A stretch of DNA of 64,000 nt from Minisyncoccota bacterium. GTDB lineage: Bacteria > Patescibacteriota > Minisyncoccia > Phycocordibacterales > UBA9973. The stretch covers positions 198,926 to 262,925 of the forward strand of contig JBBABB010000001.1 of assembly GCA_041657885.1 (NCBI GenBank). Reading direction: 5' to 3'. Both the position numbers and the translations under genes were made by a program. The notes under the pieces are model-generated. The model did not search any database. It had not been told where the DNA came from and saw nothing but the letters and a program-made list of their open reading frames with translations. Of the stretch, positions 39,882 through 39,973 are shown one piece after another (position 1 is the first letter of the stretch; every line of letters starts with the position of its first letter).

Positions 39882-39973
39882 GTTCCTCCCCTCCTTACCA
39901 AGGAGGGGAATGAGGGGAGGTTCTTAATTAATTAGGAACCTCTCCCCAGCCCTCCCCTTAGTAAGGGGAGGGA
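39882..39973. repeat. G+C-rich triple-hairpin element (copy A) between atpG and atpD
   Basis: CCCCTCC-ttaccaa-GGAGGGG; GAGGGGAGGTTC-ttaattaattag-GAACCTCTCCCC; CCCTCCCCTT-agt-AAGGGGAGGG. Confidence 0.65.

Follow-up and report, generated by a model that had tools for sequence, protein, structure and literature searches.

Our study revealed that each of the two G+C-rich elements lying between atpG, atpD and atpC of a Candidatus Paceibacterota genome consists of two class-II intrastrand triplex motifs in inverted arrangement, an architecture which, on its sequence, is that of the widespread bacterial repeat class named BoxC, PIT or TM. The elements were recently inserted and probably represent selfish or neutral DNA of this class, and not operon regulators or ribosome-binding sites. 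No new type of system is involved, and nothing in the data points to a regulation of the atp operon by these elements.

The window, by which we mean the whole stretch of 64 000 nt that was analysed, comes from a metagenomic contig, and the host genome belongs to Candidatus Paceibacterota (Patescibacteria, candidate phyla radiation) and is AT-rich, with 33 % G+C; NCBI names its AtpG as that of a Candidatus Paceibacterota bacterium. As the mean G+C content of the window is ~33 %, the elements stand out sharply, as an earlier note on this DNA had remarked. The arm motif CCCCTCC-N3-12-GGAGGGG occurred three times in the window and in none of 100 dinucleotide-preserving shuffles. Pfam confirmed atpG (38967-39881, TGA stop 39879-39881), atpD (40023-41378, TAA stop 41376-41378), atpC (41488-41931) and prfA (30084-31055), and likewise atpF, atpH and atpA in the operon; rpmE (29695-29916) was assigned on an indirect basis, a matching ORF and a precomputed PF01197 Ribosomal_L31 entry. 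The earlier note had placed near-identical elements at 39882-39973 and 41384-41474, and these were found as described, with a concordant alignment. Each is ~95 nt long (39882-39979 and 41382-41479), and the copies align as a continuous conserved block of ~100 nt (~39882-39984 versus ~41382-41484). They differ by three substitutions within the G+C-rich core (97 % identity), are spaced exactly 1500 nt apart and start 0-7 nt from the stop codons of atpG and atpD. The atpG-atpD element is 100 % identical in independent assemblies from two other samples (L250 and L251) and is therefore not an assembly artefact.

A class-II motif consists of a pyrimidine arm (Y), a loop, a purine arm (R), a second loop and a third block, which is the mirror image of R. 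The triads allowed were G*GC, A*AT and T*AT, which are those of the purine motif with the third block antiparallel to R, and the four atp units had 10/10, 9/10, 10/10 and 10/10 allowed triads. Doublet 1 (39882-39979) occupies the atpG-atpD spacer directly after the atpG TGA, with the ancestral AT-rich spacer kept downstream (39975-40022). Its left unit (39887-39922, + strand; 10/10 triads) is composed of Y TCCCCTCCTT, loop ACC, R AAGGAGGGGA, loop ATG and third block AGGGGAGGTT, the last being R reversed with T replacing the flanking A's of R. Its right unit (39937-39972, - strand; 9/10 triads) is composed of Y CCCTCCCCTT, loop ACT, R AAGGGGAGGG, loop CTG and third block GGGAGAGGTT, and between the two third blocks an AT-rich central palindrome, CTTAATTAATTAGG (39923-39936), forms the tip of the middle hairpin. 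Doublet 2 (41382-41479), in the atpD-atpC spacer, begins ~5-7 nt after the atpD TAA. Downstream of it comes AAATAAAAAACAT, the counterpart of the 13-nt spacer in a relative, L005. The left unit of doublet 2 (41387-41422, + strand; 10/10 triads) is identical to that of doublet 1, and its right unit (41437-41472, - strand; 10/10 triads) has Y CCCTCCCCTT, loop ACC, R AAGGGGAGGG, loop CTG and third block GGGAGGGGTT. All four units have perfect 10-nt stems, at 39887-39909 and 41387-41409 on the + strand and at 39950-39972 and 41450-41472 on the minus strand.

Set against the ITxF definition of class II (PMC4666352), the atp units have Watson-Crick Y/R stems within the range of 6-15 nt and loops within that of 1-6 nt (loop 1 of 3 nt; loop 2 of 3-5 nt, depending on register), and the third blocks of both the atp and the rpmE-prfA units carry no more than one mismatch; the 12-nt loop 2 of the rpmE-prfA doublet and of an intragenic unit falls outside the 1-6 nt limit. 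One strand could thus in principle form a hairpin with a reverse-Hoogsteen third strand, and we infer that such triplexes may form in cells; the folding tool models Watson-Crick and G-U pairs only, and the triplex is read here at the level of the sequence.

The hairpins after rpmE, which the earlier note had listed as related, proved real and comprise three units (29919-29952, 29971-30010 and 30014-30053). The first, a single class-II unit on the - strand, is separated from the rpmE stop by 2 nt and is made up of Y CCCCTCCT, R AGGAGGGG and the third block GGGGTGGT; it shows 8/8 triads, with T opposite both A-T pairs. The other two form a divergent doublet (29971-30053) in the rpmE-prfA spacer, with a + unit of 7/8 triads, a - unit of 8/8 and, in both, a 12-nt mini-hairpin within loop 2. 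A further unit on the - strand (43492-43532; Y CTCCTCCT, R AGGAGGAG, a 12-nt mini-hairpin loop, third block GAGGTGGT; 8/8 triads) lies within a DNA-alkylation-repair gene (43080-43856), on its antisense strand, and coincides with ~10 residues that are extra relative to the L005 homologue. The window therefore contains eight class-II units, seven with at most one triad mismatch and 8-10-nt stems plus the intragenic one, and the motif finder returned none in 100 first-order Markov simulations of the window and none in three 21-kb syntenic loci of relatives. Two further palindromes within genes were observed. The L005 homologue of the DNA-alkylation-repair gene has a G+C-rich palindromic insert of its own elsewhere (L005 14554-14574), and atpG of the window contains a perfect, in-frame G+C-rich palindrome, CCCCTAGGCAAGGCCTAGGGG (39292-39312), which coincides with an extra PRQGLGE segment absent from several homologues; at the same AtpG loop, P0003 has a different, longer insert.

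As RNA, the two atp elements fold with -59.3 and -63.2 kcal/mol (z = -5.5 and -5.8). The earlier description of three consecutive hairpins holds for the centroid fold of copy 1, whereas the minimum-energy fold is a single long hairpin, which is imperfect because the position of the T is mirrored between the doublet halves. The third hairpin is not the inverse of the first; its T/A position is mirrored instead (CCCCTCC versus CCTCCCC). The middle hairpin is an imperfect palindrome, as had been stated, and its arms are in addition the third-strand (mirror) blocks of the outer hairpins.

The history of the elements was assessed by comparing atp regions of relatives with 81-84 % identical AtpG. 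L005 has spacers of 32 nt (atpG-atpD) and 13 nt (atpD-atpC), and L003 has spacers of 122 nt, with an unrelated module inside, and 6 nt. L002 has a 23S-rRNA-IVP gene between atpG and atpD and a 77-nt atpD-atpC spacer with a heptamer tandem repeat. By alignment, the elements were not found in the atp spacers of these three relatives, and the ancestral AT-rich spacer is kept 3' of each element (AAATTAGAAATAT in L005 versus AAATAAAAAACAT in the window). Since relatives lack the elements and have short spacers, the elements are insertions, and the alignments show them to have entered once-short atp spacers just past the stop codons in this Paceibacterota lineage. The earlier note had pointed to the atp spacers of relatives for comparison; the elements are absent there, and related copies lie at other loci and in other genomes.

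Sister strains offered a closer view of one copy. L250 and L251 have identical AtpG and are >99.9 % identical to the window over ~7 kb, and their atpD-atpC element falls within a stretch of 160 nt (41342-41503) that diverges from the window. The left unit there has Y CCTCCCCTT, R AAGGGGAGG and third block GGAGGGGT, versus CCCCTCCTT, AAGGAGGGG and GGGGAGGTT in the window. The alignment shows that all three blocks of one unit have changed jointly in the sister strains, although similar divergent patches with no element in them occur elsewhere between these strains. The variant may in part reflect inversion of a near-palindrome. The whole element may also lie inverted relative to the window copy, but the reverse complement matched at 80/105 positions versus 75/104 in the forward direction, too small a difference to support this for a near-palindrome. 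Dense short patches that distinguish the window from L250 and L251 were seen at 41342-41503, 41684-41910, 38037-38094 and 40466-40484 and look like mosaic recombination; the first takes in precisely the atpD-atpC element plus the final 35 nt of atpD.

The atp operon in this clade has clearly accepted foreign inserts repeatedly. In the window, an ORF with a BRO-N domain (38411-38737) and an overlapping ORF of ~70 aa lie between atpA and atpG (38411-38966), and the atpD-atpC spacer of L002 (12737-12813) has a tandem heptamer array, (GAAACTA)n, in place of the triplex element. At the rpmE-prfA locus, the window has triplex units where L002 (3943-4070) and L005 (3043-3175) have a common element of ~118 nt with long terminal inverted repeats, which lies in opposite orientations in the two (85/118 as reverse complement; local score 45 versus 14 forward).

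Beyond the window, a permissive genome scan with the pattern CCCCTCC-N3-9-GGAGGGG-N0-8-GGGGAGG and a metagenome scan with a tighter pattern each returned at least 120 loci; both patterns forced the left unit and show taxonomic breadth, not frequencies. The matches listed included Alphaproteobacteria, Bacteroidota, Nitrospirota/Thermodesulfovibrionia, Planctomycetota, Chloroflexota, Omnitrophota, Patescibacteria and others, at loci of 32 % to 77 % G+C; matches in G+C-rich genomes may be partly due to chance, and those in many low-G+C loci are not. Among the matches listed, ~29 % of units had a partner hairpin at most 150 nt away, of the CCTCCCC/GGGGAGG type in 36 cases versus the CCCCTCC/GGAGGGG type in 24 (palindromes counted on both strands), and the closest copies were 85-87 % identical, with a common AATGA linker and TTAATTAAT centre. 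One of these close copies lies directly past a stop codon and before infB (L221) and another before an ftsK-like gene (L191), both on low-G+C contigs. The elements are thus dispersed in the genome and have close copies at unrelated loci, and the proposal of a family of repeated extragenic palindromic G+C-rich elements was upheld. No further copies were found in the 7 kb beyond the end of the window. Crude gene orientations, which derive from noisy ORF calls and are not strong evidence, gave no sign of a strand bias, and the units tended to fall at most ~10 nt from a stop codon.

The mirror rule was examined in hairpins that the search patterns had not forced, with a third block sought 1-8 nt downstream. 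Among 644 unforced perfect pyrimidine/purine hairpins in 240 fetched loci, 127 had a perfect 7-nt third block on the 3' side, and the wrong-side control gave 6/644. The mirror rule is not an artefact of the search patterns. Opposite A-T pairs, third blocks carried T in 154 cases and A in 73, in line with the purine motif and with the GGGTGAGGG block of E. coli. The blocks are of low complexity, being runs of C or of G broken by one T or A, so mirror, direct and shifted relations are partly confounded. A pyrimidine-motif triplex, which would be compatible with RNA, was rejected: wherever the purine-side third block has a T, the pyrimidine block of the opposite strand has an A, and the frequent CCCCACC that results breaks this motif and fits only a purine motif on the other strand. 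A G-quadruplex (G-runs of 2, 4, 4 and 2) was also considered and dropped.

The earlier note had proposed that the GGAGG cores serve as Shine-Dalgarno sites for the downstream genes, especially atpC, and this is refuted by the sequence data. A GGAGG is indeed present upstream of atpC, and it is the only one found in the Shine-Dalgarno survey of the window, but it lies 16 nt from the start codon and not 13 nt as had been stated, it is paired within a 10-bp stem, and the spacing for atpD is at least 49 nt. Furthermore, an SD-like motif within 25 nt of the start is absent in 53 of 57 window genes (ORFs of at least 100 aa), so the organism is apparently not reliant on SD-based initiation, and relatives translate atpC from AT-only spacers of 6-13 nt.

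REP elements of E. coli act as mRNA stabilisers or processing hairpins, and the earlier note had suggested that the atp elements tune subunit stoichiometry in this manner. As cis-acting RNA elements, their stable 3' hairpins would stop 3'-5' exonucleases or steer endonucleolytic processing, with different half-lives and subunit ratios as the outcome. The very stable RNA folds (-59 and -63 kcal/mol, z of about -5.5) and the location of both copies directly past stop codons, in the same orientation and in one operon, speak for this, as does the lack of a T-tail, which makes read-through into the next gene plausible. The same feature counts against an intrinsic terminator, as the last stem is followed by GAAATAC... 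or GAAATAA... and the elements were not among the terminators reported by a scan. However, the elements are missing from the same spacers in relatives whose AtpG is 81-84 % identical, where these spacers can be as short as 6-32 nt, and the family adjoins unrelated genes in both orientations and occurs inside ORFs. What is conserved is the mirror block of the third strand, in which T or A faces the A-T pairs; this block follows the purine-motif rule and is useless to an RNA hairpin, and purine-motif triplexes have been reported to form in DNA and not in RNA (PMC4666352). PIT elements of E. coli, moreover, have neither promoter nor terminator activity (PMC4666352). We therefore think a role in setting atp subunit ratios unlikely, and an mRNA stabiliser or processing role is not favoured, while a passive effect of very stable RNA hairpins on mRNA decay may exist.

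The inverted-doublet architecture, the near-identical copies in one genome and the presence or absence of copies among relatives are all reminiscent of REPINs, and the elements might accordingly be regarded as strict REPINs or MITEs, that is, non-autonomous transposons moved by a dedicated RAYT/Y1 HUH or IS transposase encoded elsewhere. Like REP, BIME and REPIN sequences, they are short G+C-rich extragenic palindromes that are often inverted doublets folding into a longer hairpin, lie mostly 3' of genes and show lineage-specific expansions. A Y1_Tnp gene fragment is also found at the edge of the loci of relatives L003 and L004, but these relatives lack the motif, and no RAYT (Y1 transposase) or other transposase was identified among the annotated genes of the window (30023-64000) and the 7 kb beyond its end. 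In addition, the window arms are homopyrimidine/homopurine with a mirror third block, which REPs do not have, and published REP sequences of Pseudomonas and Stenotrophomonas differ from the window elements. The window elements carry neither GTAG nor CGTC, the tag beside the palindrome that marks most described REPs (PMC3733652). Apart from the triplex blocks themselves, the elements have no terminal inverted repeats, and neither a mobilising enzyme nor a target-site duplication was found in the ~71 kb of genome examined. All-against-all clustering of 3515 ORFs from 120 genome loci with the motif (among the matches listed) revealed no enriched protein family, the largest cluster covering 11/120 loci. 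For the TM class, Holder et al. (2015) likewise report no link with mobile elements (PMC4666352). Taken together, this evidence makes dedicated transposition very improbable.

Selfish or neutral repeats of the BoxC/PIT/TM class remain the preferred reading. The BoxC/PIT elements of E. coli were described by Hoyne et al. (2000), as cited in Holder et al. (2015), the E. coli version having been named BoxC first and PIT later (PMC4666352). The E. coli consensus, TMECO, is CCCTCNCCC-N3-6-GGGNGAGGG-N3-GGGNGAGGG; TM elements number 3610 copies in 262 proteobacterial genomes, of which E. coli MG1655 has 23, all intergenic (PMC4666352). They show no strand bias, include palindromic occurrences, differ strongly in copy number between close strains and are associated with local genomic instability (PMC4666352). 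The window units share with BoxC/PIT/TMECO the order of C-rich Y arm, loop, G-rich R arm, loop 2 of 3-5 nt and mirroring G-rich third block, as well as T or A opposite A-T in the third block and stems of 9-10 nt. Both are intergenic and multi-copy, some as inverted repeats ('palindromic'), with a presence or number that varies among close relatives and with no transposase found in association, for the window units among the annotated genes of 30023-64000 and the 7 kb beyond. They differ in their blocks, as the TMECO consensus is not matched by the window blocks, (T)CCCCTCCTT / AAGGAGGGG(A) / (A)GGGGAGGTT and CCCTCCCCTT / AAGGGGAGGG / GGGAGGGGTT, and in their host, which is here AT-rich Patescibacteria. 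In contrast to BoxC/TMECO, the halves of a window doublet are different variants with the T position mirrored, and the copies seen here abut stop codons, with one copy in frame inside a gene.

G+C-rich palindromic mini-insertions that are conspicuous in AT-rich genomes are also represented by the RPEs of Rickettsia and the GC clusters of yeast mitochondria. RPEs are ~100-150 nt long, insert in frame into protein-coding genes and are not known to be built from pyrimidine/purine mirror blocks. The in-frame insertions at 43492-43532 and 39292-39312 of the window are similar to them in kind, but are not known to be related to them in sequence. A literature text search with exact element strings found no match. 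In Rfam, only tRNAs passed the gathering threshold in the window and in 20 element-bearing loci, and an E-value search of 39850-40010 returned sub-threshold hits only, to generic long-hairpin miRNA models and to sX13 (25 bits versus a threshold of 50).

We infer that these repeats are non-coding and would spread or homogenise via a DNA-level process acting on single-stranded DNA, for which replication-linked template switching, gene conversion or a transposase acting in trans are candidates. The 97 % identity of the atp copies could stem from local gene conversion and not from transposition. Elements would persist where they are least harmful, either directly downstream of a stop codon or, within genes, at in-frame positions in variable loops of the protein, and once in the atp mRNA would form ordinary hairpins only. 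Any effect on mRNA half-life or gene coupling would then be a by-product and not the reason for their existence. A bolder version, in which CCCCTCC/GGAGGGG/GGGGAGG units, alone or in asymmetric inverted doublets, form a cross-phylum, structure-defined family of selfish DNA, copied and selected for purine-motif triplex folding of one strand, spread without a dedicated transposase (for example by template switching at triplex-stalled forks) and landing preferentially just 3' of stops, is decidedly unlikely in our estimation. If it were true, intrastrand triplexes would be a general way in which bacterial repeats arise and move, and the three-block substitutions of the sister strains would be natural 'triple covariation' evidence for a triplex in vivo.

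Other repeats and signals were observed in the neighbourhood. A promoter-like motif, AAAGCTWCACAAATTATATTMT, recurs upstream of genes (34196-34274, 50452-50479 and 52856-52883) and before atpB is followed by a conserved leader, GGTCCTCGGATGAGGGAGGACGAGGAGCCAGACC. The same AAAGCTWCACAAATTATATTMT/leader module, of ~60 nt and with no Rfam match, lies in atp spacers of relatives, between atpA and atpG in L002 (9899-10000) and between atpG and atpD in L003 (10930-11031). A 76-nt leader containing the hairpin GGAAATG-TAAWC-CATTTCC occurs in two 88 % identical copies (12588-12663 and 35655-35730), which end at the starts of the unrelated genes ORF 12661 and atpF. AT-rich palindromes of the form TTTTAGTAGT(T/C)GRACTACTAAAA are found at gene ends (1636-1660, 19393-19415, 19838-19861 and 20065-20087) and are probably terminators or a separate repeat family. 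The region 3' of atpC (41949-42053), which has a palindrome with a 17-bp stem (41949-41988), a second hairpin, ATCCCCACAC...GTGTGGGGAT, and a perfect TTGACA-18-TATAAT promoter (42024-42053), is likely the true end of the atp operon.

In summary, what had been described as a REP-like hairpin is recast as an instance of a defined, experimentally studied repeat class, the BoxC/PIT/TM class is extended to the candidate phyla radiation, and a sequence variant of it is found in many phyla, in genomes of 32 % to 77 % G+C among the matches listed. In the E. coli elements, a triplex formed in vitro and was not detected in vivo (PMC4666352); the joint three-block change and the excess of T over A reported here are arguments, drawn from natural variation, that a triplex rule and not a mere hairpin may be maintained. 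The elements are recorded for their candidate-phyla-radiation host, the variant present in many phyla, the three-block change between sister strains and the copies inside genes. In genome annotation, transcript data would be needed before such elements are called ribosome-binding sites, terminators or operon regulators. The elements also mark insertion-tolerant places in small streamlined genomes, including essential operons and in-frame positions within genes.
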